DNA of 5,878 nt from a virus (Duplodnaviria > Heunggongvirae > Uroviricota > Caudoviricetes). Location: the IMG/VR virus record IMGVR_UViG_2531839473_000007, one strand, 5' to 3'. The notes beneath the pieces were generated by a model that worked only from the letters and a program-made list of their open reading frames with translations, was not told the origin of the DNA and did no database searches. Positions within the stretch are counted from its first letter, which is position 1. Each line of letters begins with the position of its first letter. This document shows positions 1 through 5,878 of this stretch, piece after piece. The translations under genes were made by a program, and so were the position numbers.

Positions 1-43
1 CGGAGCAGACGCTCACGCTGTGCGATGATGTGCGGGCCTGCCG

Positions 44-1930
44 GTGTACGGGGAGATACCGTTTAACCCGAACACCCGTGAGGTGACGACGGCGTGCATC
101 AGCCTGTTCCGCTACCAGGCGCAGGTGCGGCCCTCGCAGGTGCGTTCAAAAGACCACACGTTTAAGGTGCCGGACTGGCCGGGTATTTACATTGAGGATG
201 CTGAAAACCTCAACGGGCAACTGAAGCAGTACAAAATCCTGGACTGGCCGGGGCGCTACAAGGACGAGCAGCATGGTCAGGACTTTACCCGCTACCGGCT
301 GGAAGGGCTGCGTAACAGTGCTGAAACCGCCACAGGTATCAGTAACTCCCCGGCGCTGTGGCCGGGACGGCGGTTCACCCTGACGGGGCATCCGGTACAG
401 GGAGCGAACCCGAACCGTGAGTGGCAGGTGGTGAGCAGCACGCTGACGGGGAGCCAGCCGCAGGCGCTGCACGGCAGTCACGGTGAAGGAACGACGCTGA
501 GTAACCAGTTTGAGGTGATACCGGCAGACAGGACGTGGCGTCACGCGCCGCTGCCGAAGCCGAAGGTGGACGGCCCGCAGAGTGCCATCGTGACCGGGCC
601 GAAGGGCGAGGAGATATTCTGCGACGAACATGGCCGGGTACGGGTGAAGTTTCACTGGGACCGTTATCACGGTATGACGGAGGAGAGTTCATGCTGGATA
701 CGGGTGTCGCAGGCGTGGGCGGGAGCGGGGTTCGGTAATCTGGCGATACCGCGTGTGGGTCAGGAAGTGATAGTGGACTTTCTGAACGGGGACCCGGACC
801 AGCCCATCGTCACGGGACGCACCTACCATGAGGACAACCGTTCACCGGGGGATTTACCGGGCACGAAGACGCAGATGACGATACGGTCGAAGACCTATAA
901 AGGAAGCGGATTTAACGAGCTGCGGTTTGAAGACGCCACGGGCGGTGAGCAGGTGTATATCCATGTGCAGAAGAACATGGACACGGAGGTGCTTCACGAC
1001 CGGACGACGGACGTGAAGCATGACCACACGGAGACCATCGGGAACAACCAGAAAATCACGGTGGGGCTGGGCCAGACGGTGACGGTGGGGAAAGAGAATG
1101 CCGGAGGGCATGACCAGACCATCACGGTGGCCCATGACCGGAGCATCACGGTGCGCAACGACCAGACGCTGAAGGTGACGAACGACCGGCGGGTGAACGT
1201 CAGCCACGATGACGGTCTGTACGTCAGAAACGACCGAAAGGTGACGGTGGAAGGGAAGCAGGAGCACAAAACGACAGGAAACCACATCAGCCTGGTGGAG
1301 GGAAAACACAGCCTGGAGGTGAAAGGCGACCTGGCGAGGAAGATTACCGGCGCGCTGGGAATGAAGGTCCGGGATGAAATCGTACTGGAGAGCGGCGGTA
1401 AAATCACCCTGAAGGTGGGCGGCTCGTTCGTTGTCGTTCATTCTGGTGGCGTGGATATTGCCGGGCCGAAGATAAACCTGAACGGCGGGGGCAGTGCGGG
1501 GACACCGGTGGGGACGATGCAGCCGGGTGTACTGGCGGCGCTGGCGGATGACGGGGGTGATGAAGAAGGCGAAGATGACGGGCAGGGCAATGGCGACTCC
1601 GGTGATGGAGAGGGGGGGGCCGGAGATGATGATAGTGGAAACGATTCGGACAATTCAGATGATGATGAAAAGGAAATTGTTTCTATTAGTTGGTCCTATG
1701 GTAACAATCGGACAAAAGTTCAGGATACATCCAGACACTATGTAGACCTCAATCTCCATGTGCAGACAAAAGGGTATAGTCCTGGGGAAAGTGTGTCCGT
1801 CGAAATAAAATATGATGACTTTGATGGTATGGAAAGATCTCTTGCTGTTAGCGGCACGGTAGATGAATCAGGTGAGATGGTTGTTGAGCAGGTTTTATCT
1901 GGGGCAGACGTCTGTACTTTAGATGAGTAG
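44..1930 (+). CDS. vgrG: T6SS spike protein VgrG (vgrG1), 3' portion with C-terminal extension. The open frame starts at GTG 44 after a TGA at 26-28, but the vgrG reading continues upstream in another frame (apparent 1-bp deletion near nt 30-32), so this is a frameshifted gene or a sequencing error.
   Basis: Translation carries VgrG core motifs (FKVPDWPGIYIEDAENLNGQ, YKDEQHGQDFTRYRLEGLRNSAETATG, FHWDRYHG, gp5-like beta-helix repeats such as VKHDHTETIGNNQKITVGLGQTVTVG). It aligns residue-by-residue with the vgrG2 N-terminal region at 5509-5878. Stop TAG at 1928-1930. Confidence 0.9.
   Translation: MYGEIPFNPNTREVTTACISLFRYQAQVRPSQVRSKDHTFKVPDWPGIYIEDAENLNGQLKQYKILDWPGRYKDEQHGQDFTRYRLEGLRNSAETATGISNSPALWPGRRFTLTGHPVQGANPNREWQVVSSTLTGSQPQALHGSHGEGTTLSNQFEVIPADRTWRHAPLPKPKVDGPQSAIVTGPKGEEIFCDEHGRVRVKFHWDRYHGMTEESSCWIRVSQAWAGAGFGNLAIPRVGQEVIVDFLNGDPDQPIVTGRTYHEDNRSPGDLPGTKTQMTIRSKTYKGSGFNELRFEDATGGEQVYIHVQKNMDTEVLHDRTTDVKHDHTETIGNNQKITVGLGQTVTVGKENAGGHDQTITVAHDRSITVRNDQTLKVTNDRRVNVSHDDGLYVRNDRKVTVEGKQEHKTTGNHISLVEGKHSLEVKGDLARKITGALGMKVRDEIVLESGGKITLKVGGSFVVVHSGGVDIAGPKINLNGGGSAGTPVGTMQPGVLAALADDGGDEEGEDDGQGNGDSGDGEGGAGDDDSGNDSDNSDDDEKEIVSISWSYGNNRTKVQDTSRHYVDLNLHVQTKGYSPGESVSVEIKYDDFDGMERSLAVSGTVDESGEMVVEQVLSGADVCTLDE
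1547..1675 (+). other. Acidic low-complexity linker inside vgrG1 (D/E/G/S/N-rich, about 43 codons) between the VgrG core and the C-terminal domain; contains a G8 homopolymer.
   Basis: Translation ADDGGDEEGEDDGQGNGDSGDGEGGAGDDDSGNDSDNSDDDEK. Nucleotide composition switches from GC-rich to AT-rich within this segment. Confidence 0.8.
1612..1619 (+). repeat. G8 homopolymeric tract inside the vgrG1 coding sequence (codons GAG GGG GGG GCC).
   Basis: Eight consecutive G read directly at 1612-1619. Confidence 0.9.
1676..1927 (+). other. VgrG1 C-terminal extension domain of unknown function (about 84 aa, AT-rich); candidate cargo or adaptor-binding module.
   Basis: Translation KEIVSISWSYGNNRTKVQDTSRHYVDLNLHVQTKGYSPGESVSVEIKYDDFDGMERSLAVSGTVDESGEMVVEQVLSGADVCTLDE follows the gp5-like repeats and acidic linker. 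Its composition matches the downstream AT-rich cassette, not the vgrG core. Confidence 0.5.
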
Positions 1931-2095: not shown

Positions 2096-2236
2096 ATGGC
2101 AAAAAAAGTTACAGCTAGTGCGGGAAAACAAAAATCGACTGTTAATGTAAAAAGACCTGCATGGTCTGATGTATATGAAGGATATCCAAAAGTTAATGGA
2201 GGTACTGAAATTGAGAGTGATTTGCCTATGAAATAA
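2096..2236 (+). other. N-terminal segment (46 codons) of the tae4-like effector gene, ending at an in-frame TAA (2234-2236) and continuing in the same frame as ORF 2237-2662.
   Basis: ATG at 2096 with Shine-Dalgarno TAAGGG at 2084-2089 (6-nt spacer). Translation MAKKVTASAGKQKSTVNVKRPAWSDVYEGYPKVNGGTEIESDLPMK. Same frame as the downstream catalytic ORF, separated only by TAA. Confidence 0.5.
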
Positions 2237-2662
2237 TTGTTTACATCAATTTTTGGGCCTGATTATGATACTACGCAATTCAATAATGGTTGTGCTACAA
2301 GAGTATCTCTTGGATTACTTTCTGAAGGATTAAAAAGAGTGGGGGAAAGAGATATTGTTATTAGTGAAAAATCTCATATCCATTATGGGAAATCAATAGA
2401 GCCCGGAGCTGCAAGATTAAAAGATTTTCTGATAAAAATATGGGGAAATGCAGATTATGTCATTAAATATCCTCTAAGCTTTGACGATGTAAGCTCGGTA
2501 TTAAATGATAAAAAAGGTGTTTATATAATGGTTTATAAAAGACCTGCGGATCATGGTGGTGCTACGGGACATGCTACACTATGGACTGGTAACAGAGCCA
2601 TTGGCGGTAATGACCATGCTGATTCCAGTGCTTTTGCAATCTATTTTTGGGAATTGAAATAA
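2237..2662 (+). CDS. Tae4-like T6SS peptidoglycan amidase effector (papain-like Cys-His hydrolase), catalytic portion. Likely a pseudogene or disrupted gene, because the natural start and RBS lie upstream at 2096 beyond an in-frame TAA.
   Basis: Motifs NNGCATRVSLGL (candidate catalytic Cys) and GHATLWTGN (candidate catalytic His), followed by GGNDHAD, fit the Tae4-family pattern as recalled. Size and AT-rich composition suit an effector cassette. The only in-frame start before the Cys is TTG at 2237, with no RBS. Confidence 0.55.
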   Translation: MFTSIFGPDYDTTQFNNGCATRVSLGLLSEGLKRVGERDIVISEKSHIHYGKSIEPGAARLKDFLIKIWGNADYVIKYPLSFDDVSSVLNDKKGVYIMVYKRPADHGGATGHATLWTGNRAIGGNDHADSSAFAIYFWELK

Positions 2663-3096
2663 TGAAAGCTATATTTTTTATATTCTGTATTTTTTTTATG
2701 GGAAATTCATTGTTATATTCAGAGGCTAAAGCCAGTGAATCAGAAAGTACTCTGGATGATTATAAAATATTTACACTCGCTAAATGCATTACCAGTAATT
2801 ATGAAAAAATGGGGGTTGATTTTACAAAACTACCATTGAAAGATAACACTATGGGATTTATTGATATTGATGCTGGACTCGCTTTTTATCGAAATAAGGA
2901 TAGTGTTTTAGCATCTTTCATTAATAAAAAAACAGGGGGTTTTTACAGGCCAAAACAAACTAGTGGTGATTTAGCATCTTCAAATATGGTTATATACGAC
3001 TGCGTAAATTTTTATCATTCAAAAGAGTTGGGTGTATTTCTAAAAAAAATCATTCATGAGAGGACTGTCGAAATTGAGAGAAACGCACTCGAATAG
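2662..3096 (+). CDS. Periplasmic immunity protein candidate (Tai4-like by synteny) with an N-terminal signal peptide.
   Basis: ATG at 2662 overlaps the upstream stop (TAATG). Signal peptide MKAIFFIFCIFFMGNSLLYSEAKA, then a hydrophilic mature protein of about 120 aa. Sits immediately downstream of the amidase effector, as in effector-immunity pairs. The ORF-track start (TTG 2647) is less plausible than ATG 2662. Confidence 0.5.
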   Translation: MKAIFFIFCIFFMGNSLLYSEAKASESESTLDDYKIFTLAKCITSNYEKMGVDFTKLPLKDNTMGFIDIDAGLAFYRNKDSVLASFINKKTGGFYRPKQTSGDLASSNMVIYDCVNFYHSKELGVFLKKIIHERTVEIERNALE

Positions 3097-3271
3097 ATAA
3101 TTCTGGCGGTGACTTTGTTTTTTTTGGATGCAATGCAATATATAAAAATTGTATTTGTTCGAAAATAATATAAAATATCCGAGAAAAATATCATTCGCTA
3201 TTAAAGTGTCTAAGCGTTTTTACATAAGTACTTTACATCGTTTAGTTTAAAAACGCGGCTATCAATAAATG

Positions 3272-3288
3272 TCGCAAAGGATTTGCGA
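3272..3288. promoter_or_regulatory. Perfect 7-bp inverted repeat TCGCAAA-gga-TTTGCGA about 45 bp upstream of the PAAR start, in an AT-rich intergenic region; candidate operator or promoter element.
   Basis: Palindrome read directly. TTGCGA within it could serve as a -35-like hexamer, with TATACA about 19 bp downstream. No strong assignment. Confidence 0.25.
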
Positions 3289-3331
3289 TATAATTCAATA
3301 TGTAAATTATACAACACATAAGGAAATTTAT

Positions 3332-3616
3332 ATGCCCACAGCAGCCAGACTCAGCGATAAAGGCACCCAGCATGACGGTTATTATGAGACCGCCATTATT
3401 GCAGGCTCCTCCTCCGTCTTTATTGATGGTATGCCCGCCGCCCGTCAGGGCGATCCGCTGACACCGCATTCCAAACCCGACCATCCCCCTCACCCCCGTA
3501 AAATCGCAGGCGGCTCTGCCACTGTCTTTATTGACGGTAAACCTGCCGCCAGAACCGGCGATGCCATTGACTGTGGCGGCGTGGTTATCGGTGGCGGCAC
3601 GGTAAATATAGGCTGA
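3332..3616 (+). CDS. Stand-alone PAAR-domain protein (T6SS spike-sharpening tip), 94 aa.
   Basis: Three PAAR-type motifs (TAARLSD, PAARQGD, PAARTGD) with G/I-rich beta-strand spacers. Shine-Dalgarno AAGGAAA 6 nt before ATG 3332. Stop TGA at 3614-3616. The ORF-track upstream ATG at 3269 lacks an RBS, and the PAAR domain begins at Met 3332. Confidence 0.9.
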   Translation: MPTAARLSDKGTQHDGYYETAIIAGSSSVFIDGMPAARQGDPLTPHSKPDHPPHPRKIAGGSATVFIDGKPAARTGDAIDCGGVVIGGGTVNIG

Positions 3617-3705
3617 TTAATTATCAGGGAGGCTGTATGCCCTCAGAAGGATTACGTTTCACGCTGTCGGTGGCCGGCATTGTGGAGATGGCGACGGCGG
3701 TGGTC
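3612..3705 (+). repeat. Direct repeat copy 1 (about 94 bp, about 90 percent identical to 4898-4987): TGATTAAT junction, Shine-Dalgarno GGGAGG, and the first 23 codons of vgrG.
   Basis: Alignment by eye: gctgattaat..cagggagg..atgccctcagaaggattacgtttcacgctgtcggtggccggcattgtggagatggcgacggcggtggt versus the vgrG2 5' region. Confidence 0.9.
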
Positions 3706-4398
3706 GTAGAGGACGGCATATTTGGAAAAAATACATACGACGCAGTGAAAATATTTCAGCGGTATAATGGGTTAAATGATGATGGCATCGTAGGGCCACA
3801 AACCTGGCGGAAATTGGGTGTTCCTGAACTTTTAACGCGAAGTTCATCAGGCTCTCCCGCCAGCCCTTCTTCGGGGCCATCCCGGAGCCCTTCTGCTGAT
3901 TCAAATGGTACTGTTGCTGAGACTGGTGATGGATTCTGTTTCCCATTCCCTGCACTTCCTGCGAGATCGTGGACAAACGGCGGTCGTCAATTTGGGGCGT
4001 CACGCAGTGGGGGCCGCAGACATGCCGGTTGTGATTTGATATTCCCCCGAGGAACGCTTATTTATGCTGTTGCTGATGGCATATTAGTTCAGCCCCCATA
4101 TCCATTTTACGAAGGTACTTCTGCTGTAGAAATTAGACATGGCAACCTTCTCCTTCGCTATGGTGAAATTATTAATGGGTCATACGTAGGTGGGCAAACG
4201 GTTCAAAAAGGTCAGGTTATTGCTAAGGTAGGAAGGCTGCATTCGGGTTCATCTATGTTGCATCTGGAGATTTATACGAATGCGACCTTATCGGGTGACC
4301 TTACAGATCGCAACAGAGCGCCTTATCAAAGACGTTCTGATGTGACAGATCCTGCCCCATATCTGGATATCTGGAAAAATAACCTGCCTACCCTCTGA
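3637..4398 (+). CDS. Chimeric putative T6SS effector: vgrG-derived N-terminus (23 aa), then a partial peptidoglycan-binding (PG_binding_1-like) motif, a Ser/Pro-rich linker and an M23/LytM-like peptidase domain.
   Basis: N-terminus MPSEGLRFTLSVAGIVEMATAVV matches the vgrG2 start MSSEGLRFTLSVDGIVEMATAVV. DGIFGKNTYDAVKIFQRYNGLNDDGIVGPQTWRKLG matches the second half of the PG_binding_1 consensus. M23-like blocks: HAGCD (HxxxD), GTLIYAVADGILV, VEIRHGNLLLRYGEI, GQTVQKGQVIAKVG, SMLHLEIY, VTDPAPYL. Shine-Dalgarno GGGAGG precedes ATG 3637. Confidence 0.75.
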   Translation: MPSEGLRFTLSVAGIVEMATAVVVEDGIFGKNTYDAVKIFQRYNGLNDDGIVGPQTWRKLGVPELLTRSSSGSPASPSSGPSRSPSADSNGTVAETGDGFCFPFPALPARSWTNGGRQFGASRSGGRRHAGCDLIFPRGTLIYAVADGILVQPPYPFYEGTSAVEIRHGNLLLRYGEIINGSYVGGQTVQKGQVIAKVGRLHSGSSMLHLEIYTNATLSGDLTDRNRAPYQRRSDVTDPAPYLDIWKNNLPTL

Positions 4399-4417
4399 TG
4401 TTTAAGGAATCAATAAA

Positions 4418-4882
4418 ATGTTCAAAAAGATAATACTATTTTTAACGGTGATATCTTCGAGTTTTGTTGTTTGTCTTGCGGCTGATTCAGAAAAGATATT
4501 ATCAGTAGATCCTGTTGTGAATAATTTTGGCGTTGATGAAGTCGTAGGGTTGCCTCATCCTGTTTGTACTTTGAGTCTGGCTGAAAATAATGAGAAACAT
4601 CTTTATAATTATGTTGAGGGCGGTATCTGCCCTGTGGGCGGTGAAAGTTGTCCTTATTCAGCCGTCATAAAACTGAATGGCAAGATGGCGATATTAAAAC
4701 AGATATCGACAAATAAAAATATCAGTTTTTTTAAGAATGATGAGGTATCGATTATCACAACACAAAGCCCAGTTAAAGGAGCTGTGGTGGATGAAGAGGG
4801 TGGTGATGTGAATGCCGTTATTGTAATCAAAACAAAAAATAGCGAAATAAAACTTAATATGTCCGGGTACTGTGGTATTTAA
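4418..4882 (+). CDS. Putative periplasmic immunity protein for the M23-like effector (secreted, Cys-containing, no family recognised).
   Basis: Signal peptide MFKKIILFLTVISSSFVVCLA followed by ADSEK. Four Cys in the mature part (C50, C71, C78, C152). Shine-Dalgarno AAGGA 9 nt before ATG 4418. AT-rich. Immediately downstream of the effector. Confidence 0.5.
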   Translation: MFKKIILFLTVISSSFVVCLAADSEKILSVDPVVNNFGVDEVVGLPHPVCTLSLAENNEKHLYNYVEGGICPVGGESCPYSAVIKLNGKMAILKQISTNKNISFFKNDEVSIITTQSPVKGAVVDEEGGDVNAVIVIKTKNSEIKLNMSGYCGI

Positions 4883-4897
4883 AACCGGGCTATTATC

Positions 4898-4987
4898 GCT
4901 GATTAATCAAGGGAGGTCATATGTCCTCAGAAGGATTACGTTTCACGCTGTCGGTGGACGGTATTGTGGAGATGGCGACGGCAGTGG
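4898..4987 (+). repeat. Direct repeat copy 2: the authentic vgrG2 translation-initiation region and first 23 codons.
   Basis: Same alignment as copy 1; gctgattaat at 4898-4907, GGGAGG at 4911-4916, ATG at 4921. Confidence 0.9.
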
Positions 4988-5878
4988 TGAGCTTCCGTCT
5001 GTACCAGCACCACTGCACACCGTTCATCCTGGATGTGGATATCGCCAGCGGACTGTCTGACCTGACGGCGGAGGATTTTCTGGAGAAAAGCGCGGTGCTG
5101 ACGGTCTGGCAGGGCGACACTGCACAGCGTTACGTCAGCGGTATCGTGACGGAGGTGCAGCTCGGTGAGAACAACGACTGGCAGATGCGTTATTCCCTGA
5201 GCATCAGCCCGCCGCTGTGGCGGGCAGGGTTACGGCAGAACTTCCGTATCTTCCAGCAGCAGGACATCGGGACGATATCAGCACAGCTTCTTGAAGAGAA
5301 CGGGGTGACGGCGTGGATGCCGCTGTTCTATGAGGCGCACCCGGCGCGGGAGTTCTGCGTGCAGTACGGGGAGAGCGACCTGGCGTTCCTGACCCGGCTG
5401 TGGGCGGAGGAAGGTATCTTCTTTTATGAGCGCTGCAGTCAGGAAGGGCCGGAACAGAAGCTGGCGGTGTGTGATGACGTGGCGGGGCTGACGGGAATGG
5501 GGGCGCTGGCGTTTAACCCGGACACGACGACCGGGGGAACGACGGAGTACATCAGCGAGTTTCGTTACCGTGCGCAGATAAGCGTGGCGTCGGTGGAGAC
5601 GCAGGATTATACGTTCAAAACGCCGGGGTGGCCGGGGTACTACAGCCATGCCGGGGAGAGCCTGAACGGGCAGGGAACGCAGTACGAGATATTTGATTAT
5701 CCGGGGCGTTTCAAGGATGAGCAGCACGGCCAGGACTTTGCGCGTTACCAGACGGAAGGGTGGCGGAACGGGGCGGAGACGGCGAGCGGGGTGTGTAACA
5801 CGGCGCGACTGTGGCCGGGAACGCGGTTCCGGCTGACGGGCCATCCCTCAGGGACGCTGAACCGGGAATGGCAGGTTG
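4921..5878 (+). CDS. vgrG: T6SS spike protein VgrG (vgrG2), N-terminal about 319 codons; 3' end beyond the window.
   Basis: Open frame from ATG 4921 to the window end with no stop (translated by hand). Begins MSSEGLRFTLSVDGIVEMATAVVSFRLYQ and continues with VgrG core motifs (TFKTPGWPGYY, FKDEQHGQDFARYQTEGWRNGAETASG). Strong Shine-Dalgarno AAGGGAGG. Confidence 0.92.
   Translation, partial: MSSEGLRFTLSVDGIVEMATAVVSFRLYQHHCTPFILDVDIASGLSDLTAEDFLEKSAVLTVWQGDTAQRYVSGIVTEVQLGENNDWQMRYSLSISPPLWRAGLRQNFRIFQQQDIGTISAQLLEENGVTAWMPLFYEAHPAREFCVQYGESDLAFLTRLWAEEGIFFYERCSQEGPEQKLAVCDDVAGLTGMGALAFNPDTTTGGTTEYISEFRYRAQISVASVETQDYTFKTPGWPGYYSHAGESLNGQGTQYEIFDYPGRFKDEQHGQDFARYQTEGWRNGAETASGVCNTARLWPGTRFRLTGHPSGTLNREWQV

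Follow-up and report, generated by a model that had tools for sequence, protein, structure and literature searches.

The 5,878-nucleotide (nt) stretch of DNA analysed here, referred to below as the window, is identical to a segment of the Escherichia coli MFDS1022581 chromosome (NZ_CP169399.1) and lies in the variable effector region of a type VI secretion system (T6SS) gene cluster. Between a PAAR gene and a vgrG gene (vgrG2) it contains a 253-amino acid (aa) open reading frame (ORF) annotated as a "DD-metalloendopeptidase", and this gene is a chimera: it opens with the first codons of vgrG, continues as a 5'-truncated effector gene, and is the scar of a recombination or deletion event. The annotation of MFDS1022581 gives the order of the cluster as tssBC, hcp, vgrG0, two genes, an IS2 insertion sequence (IS), PAAR, vgrG1, tae4 and tai4, followed by PAAR, the 253-aa "DD-metalloendopeptidase", a 154-aa gene, vgrG2, a DUF4123 gene, three DUF3304 genes and tle1. 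The features around the chimeric gene are listed here, with the domains of the window ORFs assigned using Pfam; L004 and L007 are metagenome contigs and L110 is from Escherichia sp. E4385, all three with related loci that are described further below.

3332–3616, plus strand: PAAR gene, 94 aa (Pfam PAAR_motif, E = 1e-20).
3612–3704, plus strand: repeat copy 1, made up of the PAAR stop codon, a ribosome-binding site (RBS) and the vgrG start with 68 nt; the apparent stub of a mostly deleted vgrG, with homologous stubs in L110, L004 and L007.
3637–4398, plus strand: chimeric gene, 253 aa; residues 1–23 are VgrG, and residues 24–253 correspond to residues 31–260 of the native effector.
3704–3706, plus strand: illegitimate in-frame junction, GCGGTGGT joined to CGTAGAGG, placed by three-way alignment with L004 and L007, by comparison with L110 and from the junction sequence.
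4418–4882, plus strand: presumed immunity gene, 154 aa, always directly 3' of the effector; on inspection only, its N-terminus resembles a signal peptide.
4883–4897, plus strand: 15-nt spacer from the immunity gene stop to repeat copy 2, the conserved right junction of the cassette.
4898–4988, plus strand: repeat copy 2, with the functional RBS and the 5' end of vgrG2.
4921–5878, plus strand: 5' part of vgrG2, which runs past the window end (Pfam Phage_GPD, E = 3e-74).

Local alignment of the two repeat copies (3612–3704 and 4898–4988) shows identity in 83 of 93 aligned columns (89%), in blocks that pair 3612–3623 with 4898–4909 and 3626–3704 with 4910–4988, the copies differing by a single 2-nt indel in the RBS spacer. 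The ungapped block of 79 nt is 91% identical, and the two longest stretches without a mismatch measure 33 and 20 nt. BLASTN scores the pair at 121 bits; when the window was dinucleotide-shuffled 30 times, no off-diagonal self-hit exceeded 31 bits. A repeat of the vgrG start with about 90% identity had been proposed in a sequence-only reading of this DNA, and the alignment bears this out with coordinates that shift by at most 1 nt. The similarity reaches past the RBS into vgrG coding sequence: each copy contains the last 5 nt of PAAR (GC and the TGA stop), the AGGGAGG-bearing spacer and, from the ATG on, 68 nt of vgrG (22 codons and 2 nt of codon 23). Copy 2 matches the 5' end of vgrG0, the gene that follows hcp (coordinates 2299–2382 of locus L001), at 100% identity. 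When the 15 nt ahead of copy 2 were compared by eye with PAAR, no likeness beyond the GCTGA was seen.

The chimeric gene starts 20 nt past PAAR and encodes the VgrG-derived N-terminus MPSEGLRFTLSVAGIVEMATAVV, such that the effector is now carried on the vgrG RBS and start codon, a capture of the translation-initiation region that the sequence-only reading had recognised. At the junction the sequence passes from vgrG nt 68 (in codon 23) straight to effector nt 97 (in codon 32), with no more than 1 nt (T) of microhomology. Beyond it the protein has a PG_binding_1 domain without helix 1, a Ser/Pro linker and an M23 domain, and its only Pfam matches are to positions 22–57 of the 57-position PG_binding_1 profile (residues 25–60) and to Peptidase_M23. 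The native proteins match PG_binding_1 positions 2–57 and have all three helices; the first half of the domain is thus absent from the chimera, as had been noticed from the sequence, and the gene is rightly described as a recombination or deletion scar. An assembly artefact was considered and rejected, the junction being identical in independent complete genomes and in drafts. Also missing from the chimera is the native effector leader, which has an RBS of its own and a 13-bp hairpin. Scans for promoters and terminators returned consensus-level matches only, and the absence from the chimera of the hairpin and the -35/-10-like site of the native leader (L004 1602–1633) is not taken as a sign of function.

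AlphaFold2 models of the chimeric and native proteins were built from an alignment of 34–35 sequences. The native protein is modelled with a three-helix peptidoglycan-binding domain at a predicted local distance difference test (pLDDT) score of ~88. In the model of the chimera residues 1–28 have a pLDDT below 50, helices 2 and 3 of the domain are kept and helix 1 is absent, and the M23 domain (pLDDT >90) is unchanged. The models suggest that residues 1–23 are probably unstructured and predict a crippled peptidoglycan-binding domain beside an intact M23 domain; the chimera may or may not still be active and secreted. A second variant of the effector (P0129, E. coli, 239 aa) likewise has a truncated PG_binding_1 match, to profile positions 22–57, but a different short sequence, MNTVLTSRL, precedes the same join point (LEDGIFGK).

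A search of 5.8 billion proteins identified 179 homologues of the effector. The close ones are mostly 247–260 aa long and align from query residue ~20–24 onward, with PG_binding_1 and M23 domains and nothing else, and none of the 179 contains a VgrG domain (Phage_GPD or Phage_base_V). The native proteins share a conserved N-terminus (MxATLWMF..SDVKKLQQLLN), and the native genes have their own RBS and start codon and lie 58–243 nt downstream of a vgrG stub or of PAAR. Because the family has its own conserved N-terminus, a full PG_binding_1 domain and no VgrG domains among its homologues, it appears to consist of free-standing cargo effectors and not to be a domain of VgrG. The homologues adjoin vgrG, PAAR, hcp or tssBC in loci of Escherichia, Pseudocitrobacter, Phytobacter, Citrobacter and Salmonella. 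A gene of 154–161 aa (44–99% identity) lies 3' of the effector at every locus, and the effector-immunity order is kept in seven enterobacterial genera (Escherichia, Pseudocitrobacter, Buttiauxella, Phytobacter, Kluyvera, Citrobacter and Salmonella), in which the pair adjoins vgrG, PAAR or hcp. From this genetic linkage we presume the effector and the 154-aa gene to be a T6SS cargo effector-immunity pair; the 154-aa protein itself has no family match.

The effector resembles M23 endopeptidases such as LytM, lysostaphin and ShyA in its fold, its Pfam M23 match and its zinc ligands, with the HxxxD motif (H129 and D133) and the last histidine (H209) kept. It differs from them at the catalytic histidines of canonical M23 enzymes, which are replaced by Glu177 and Met207, both invariant in 35 sequences of the family; in the alignment to 9gy1 these appear as MxH instead of HxH and YGE instead of YGH, and the canonical M23 catalytic residues are therefore incomplete. 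The family may represent a mechanistically divergent M23 enzyme. A literature search for it found only other M23-containing T6SS effectors, and the PG_binding_1-M23 family seems to be uncharacterised.

The related loci share the order PAAR, vgrG stub, effector, immunity gene, 15-nt spacer, GCTGATTAAT, RBS and vgrG, and differ only in the sequence between the vgrG stub and the effector.

L004 (metagenome contig): cassette 99.5% identical to the window; stub of 50 nt, then ~100 nt of the 3' end of an ISAs1 element and a 70-nt leader; native effector of 260 aa.
L007 (metagenome contig): cassette ~92% identical to the window; stub of 38 nt, with the same ISAs1 junction; native effector.
L110 (Escherichia sp. 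E4385): cassette ~94% identical to the window; stub of 347 nt, then a 73-nt leader; native effector of 260 aa.
Window: stub of 68 nt, with nothing between stub and effector, which are fused in frame; chimeric protein of 253 aa.

L110 has the same backbone as the window (vgrG1-tae4-tai4-PAAR), and its stub forms an ORF of 121 aa with ~96% identity to the vgrG that lies downstream. The outer-left boundary of the repeat, GCTGATTAAT, is common to the window, L004, L007 and L110, and the right junction (immunity gene stop, 15 nt, GCTGATTAAT) is the same in these four and in L028 of Pseudocitrobacter faecalis. Since both are common to several lineages, the duplication of the segment with the PAAR stop, RBS and vgrG 5' end appears to be old. 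The left copy is best read as the remnant of a vgrG gene shortened to 347, 68, 50 and 38 nt, and the varied lengths argue for independent deletions and not for a fixed insertion site. Most of the "leader" of L004 (1500–1603) and of L007 (3233–3344) is the last ~100 nt of an ISAs1-family element; the L004 fragment contains the C-terminus of an ISEc26-like transposase and the right end of the element, and the fragment has been joined by deletion to vgrG nt 50 in L004 and to vgrG nt 38 in L007. The sequence-only reading had offered insertion of an effector-immunity cassette within the first vgrG codons as one explanation of the gene. That explanation needs revising: the arrangement with flanking repeats is older than the fusion, which is secondary, and E4385, L004 and L007 have it, with longer or shorter stubs, next to an intact native effector.

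Decay of vgrG next to the cassette is also seen in other genera. In P. faecalis L028 (7199–7350) the vgrG 3' of the cassette has lost an internal segment between two GGTATCGTG repeats, so that approximately codon 17 is joined to approximately codon 72. Phytobacter ursingii L030 (4509–5260) has PAAR, a degraded vgrG 5' remnant with a stop codon, a 5'-truncated M23 effector pseudogene and an intact immunity gene.

The window has a mosaic PAAR allele. Its PAAR gene is 98.9% identical to that of E. coli PapRG-04-4 and 90.5% identical to that of L004, and the window agrees with the PAAR-vgrG allele of E. coli PapRG-04-4 and ET350 at ~35 informative sites from ~3385 to 3704; it is of the L004 type upstream of PAAR (97.6%) and from 3706 on (99.5%). 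PAAR alleles are ~10% apart among all four related loci in a backbone that is 97–98% identical. The same ~10% divergence is seen when window positions 3385–3616 are compared with L004, L007, L110 and L002, where the flanks are 97–99% identical, and PAAR seems to be a hot spot of allelic replacement. Since the alleles are ~10% apart in all comparisons, exchange would be frequent and may be unrelated to the fusion; import of foreign DNA and an in situ deletion from an E4385-like state, both considered below, account for the junction equally well. PapRG-04-4 and ET350 also provide the empty site foreseen by the sequence-only reading, in which PAAR is followed directly, after a 20-nt spacer, by vgrG. 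Both strains carry this PAAR-vgrG allele in other contexts, and an empty site in the same backbone (tai4-PAAR-vgrG2) was found in none of 5,426 complete E. coli genomes.

We think it likely that the chimeric gene arose from an old duplication and a shrinking vgrG stub, through an in-frame deletion or join that gave a native effector a new head. The starting state would be a free-standing PG_binding_1 and M23 effector of ~260 aa, with its periplasmic immunity gene, between PAAR and vgrG2, the pair being flanked by two old copies of the segment with the PAAR stop, RBS and vgrG 5' end. The left copy would be the stub of a vanished vgrG, cut to different lengths by independent deletions. In the window lineage a single illegitimate join of vgrG nt 68 to effector nt 97, in frame by chance, would have removed the rest of the stub, the 73-nt leader of the effector with its RBS and start, and codons 1–32, which encode helix 1. 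The outcome would be a 253-aa protein whose translation starts at the vgrG start site, 20 nt past the PAAR gene. The repeat, the junction, the native gene layout, the graded stub lengths and the mosaic PAAR allele are shown directly. The order of events is our reconstruction, and the route may have been either an in situ deletion of ~447 bp from an E4385-like state, which as a single event would yield the window structure, or the import of PAAR-vgrG DNA held by homology at its left end. Near-total loss of vgrG by deletion, suggested in the sequence-only reading, agrees in spirit with this account, but the deletion was not an internal one, the cut having run from vgrG into a separate downstream gene.

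Several points weigh against the account. No genome was found in which a complete vgrG separates this PAAR from the cassette, and the original duplication may have come either from stacking of entire vgrG modules or from insertion of a circle by single crossover. The sharp switch of PAAR allele stops exactly at the junction, which would fit homology-facilitated illegitimate recombination, and low pLDDT at the N-terminus is expected wherever the alignment has no depth.

The exact chimeric protein is encoded in 59 contig blocks of E. coli and Escherichia isolates, and a variant differing by one residue is present on 8 further contigs. Ten chimera loci were examined, and all have one synteny and no variable sites from repeat copy 1 to the spacer between the immunity gene and vgrG2, a span that starts 25 nt upstream of the ATG of the fusion gene. 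This points to a single, recent origin; the lack of nucleotide variation implies that the fusion is young or clonal, and no inference on selection is drawn from it. A 35-mer just downstream of the junction had no hits in a metagenome scan. The array in which the chimera lies has a nonsense codon in tae4 and a vgrG2 split by IS21, which suggests that it is in decay, and the damage to these other genes favours a scar over an innovation.

Among the other explanations the one to be taken most seriously, which we regard as possible but less likely than not, is that a PapRG-like PAAR-vgrG fragment was imported into an L004-like locus by homology-facilitated illegitimate recombination. Its left end would be anchored in the first ~50 nt of PAAR and its right end joined illegitimately at effector codon 32, with the stub, the IS fragment, the leader and the effector 5' end all replaced in one step. 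The allele patch from ~3385 to 3704, ending exactly at the junction between L004-type flanks, is what such an event would leave, and the stub-IS junction of the L004 type is also present in the more distant L007 and so looks older than the split of the window from L004. The mechanism itself has been proposed for T6SS effector-immunity modules in Vibrio cholerae (PMC5361080). However, the PAAR switch is not specific to the fusion, as PAAR differs by ~10% in every pairwise comparison of this backbone; long stubs exist in the same backbone (E4385), from which one in situ deletion is enough; and microhomology at the junction is only 1 nt. Far less plausible, and hardly credible to us, is the second explanation of the sequence-only reading, that the gene is the remnant of an evolved VgrG whose C-terminal PG-binding-M23 toxin outlived an internal deletion of the spike core. 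The gene does begin with VgrG codons 1–23, and evolved VgrGs with peptidoglycan-targeting C-terminal domains are known, such as V. cholerae VgrG3, which likewise has VgrG sequence and a peptidoglycan-targeting module in one ORF, a precedent that counts for this origin. Unlike these, the chimera contains only 23 VgrG residues and no gp27/gp5 core in the same polypeptide, and the relatives of its toxin are all free-standing: a full-length VgrG with C-terminal PG-binding and M23 domains was looked for and none exists among the 179 homologues, the close ones being 247–260 aa, and native forms have an RBS, start and conserved N-terminus of their own at a distance from the stub or PAAR. An evolved-VgrG origin is rejected on this homologue architecture.

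We see next to no likelihood that the cassette entered by site-specific, integron-like insertion, with an attachment site within the 5' end of vgrG. The constancy across lineages of the right junction and of the outer-left boundary of both copies (GCTGATTAAT) would be expected of such an insertion, but among the genes of the 26-kb locus there are IS transposases and a group II intron and no integrase; on its inner side the left copy stops at 38, 50, 68 or 347 nt, a spread to be expected from deletions; and the duplicated length of at least 372 nt is far above any target-site duplication. It is likewise improbable that the PAAR stop, RBS and first ~20–115 vgrG codons act as a portable homology handle, with which effector-immunity cassettes that carry one copy could loop out as circles and re-enter any vgrG start using RecA only; the VgrG-headed effector would then be no debris but a functional protein, expressed together with PAAR and perhaps recruited to the spike, and if true this would amount to integrase-free cassette exchange. 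A related proposal, that the VgrG-derived N-terminus or initiation region was selected and is an innovation and not a scar, seems to us doubtful to a similar degree. The swap might couple effector expression to that of PAAR and vgrG, or the new N-terminus might act as a spike-loading tag. The fusion is in frame with an intact M23 domain, the chimera is on more contigs (59, and 8 with the one-residue variant) than the native E. coli forms, and P0129 has a second N-terminal replacement at the same position. Yet the abundance may reflect one young clone, given the absence of variable sites among the 10 loci, the neighbouring tae4 and vgrG2 are damaged, the N-terminus is predicted to be disordered, and we infer that 23 residues of gp27 beta-strand cannot form the VgrG trimer interface. 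The explanation we prefer remains an old duplication followed by stub deletion and an in-frame join.

The remaining genes in the window lie to the left of the PAAR gene.

1–1930, plus strand: 3' part of vgrG1, which starts upstream of the window and encodes the gp27/gp5 core (Pfam Phage_GPD, Phage_base_V and Gp5_trimer_C; RefSeq tssI).
2096–2662, plus strand: tae4 amidase effector gene (Pfam Tae4), split by an in-frame TAA at 2234–2236.
2662–3096, plus strand: presumed Tae4 immunity gene (tai4), 144 aa, which is directly 3' of tae4 also in L110 and in L018–L027.

After its core, vgrG1 encodes an acidic Gly/Asp linker and then a low-GC C-terminal domain of ~90 aa; this segment (1540–1930), with its Asp/Gly/Glu-rich linker, has no Pfam match in the C-terminal domain, and the extension may serve in cargo recruitment for the downstream Tae4. 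The split tae4 consists of a 46-aa ORF and a 141-aa ORF with a TTG start. The intact orthologue of Escherichia sp. E4385 (P0135, 188 aa) is 97% identical over its full length and has PMTDLF at the stop site where the window has PMK*LF, and the identical split is annotated at all chimera-bearing loci. No family match was found for the presumed Tae4 immunity protein (144 aa). The IS21 interruption of vgrG2 is that of MFDS1022581, and in locus L019 the gene is uninterrupted (743 aa). A palindrome, TCGCAAAGGATTTGCGA (window 3270–3290; L004 1083–1105), lies ~45 nt 5' of PAAR; its arms are 10 bp long in L004 and 7 bp in the window, and it could be an operator or a terminator-like element. The gene content around the window, with VgrG, DUF3304 genes and Tle1, is like that of an E. 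coli T6SS cluster which we take to be of the enteroaggregative E. coli (EAEC) Sci-1 type, and like that of Tae4-Tai4 cargo pairs. It differs from the Sci-1 type in that the window lineage adds stacked PAAR-vgrG-cargo modules, several of them damaged, between hcp and the tle1 module.

RecA-mediated recombination between the 93-bp copies, with loss of the 1,286-bp module, is conceivable given their 33-nt perfect run, and the product would resemble the empty PAAR-vgrG alleles found elsewhere. A much stronger substrate is provided by vgrG0 and vgrG2, which are 99–100% identical over ~1.6 kb and 11.4 kb apart (L001 2315–3900 and 13722–15300). From their likeness we suspect gene conversion or a recent duplication, and a crossover between the two genes would delete the whole stacked effector array.

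Comparable arrangements occur in other toxin arrays. Koskiniemi and colleagues reportedly described, in 2014, recombination of orphan toxin/immunity arrays at Rhs and CdiA loci (cited in PMC5361080). As in the window, toxin-immunity cassettes at these loci have short duplicated fragments of the conserved delivery gene on either side, which permit RecA-mediated rearrangement, deletion or activation. The repeated piece of Rhs and CdiA, however, is a 3' core sequence that is naturally fused upstream of the toxin tip in the same protein, whereas the toxin here is normally a separate gene and the piece fused to it is an N-terminal fragment without a known delivery role. In V. cholerae, T6SS effector-immunity modules are displaced by homologous recombination and homology-facilitated illegitimate recombination (Kirchberger et al. 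2017, PMC5361080). The two cases are alike in that a conserved structural gene beside variable effector-immunity cargo is the recombination anchor, and in that illegitimate joins leave truncated genes and mosaic arrays with no integrase. They differ in the anchor and remnant, here the vgrG 5' end together with PAAR, and in the scar, which is here an in-frame translational fusion that re-heads an effector, where Vibrio typically keeps an orphan immunity gene.

The locus is thus a new example of a known process, the remodelling of T6SS, Rhs and contact-dependent growth inhibition (CDI) toxin arrays by recombination and deletion, and it is a fairly ordinary scar that reveals no new mechanism. Its value is as a base-resolved case of the remodelling of E. 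coli T6SS effector arrays, with the intermediates kept in relatives: paralogous vgrG 5' ends would persist as stubs and shrink by independent deletions, and one such deletion would have re-headed the neighbouring toxin gene. For annotators it is a warning that the "DD-metalloendopeptidase" at this position is N-terminally chimeric. It also draws attention to a PG_binding_1-M23 effector family, seemingly uncharacterised, with non-canonical catalytic residues and a presumed immunity partner.

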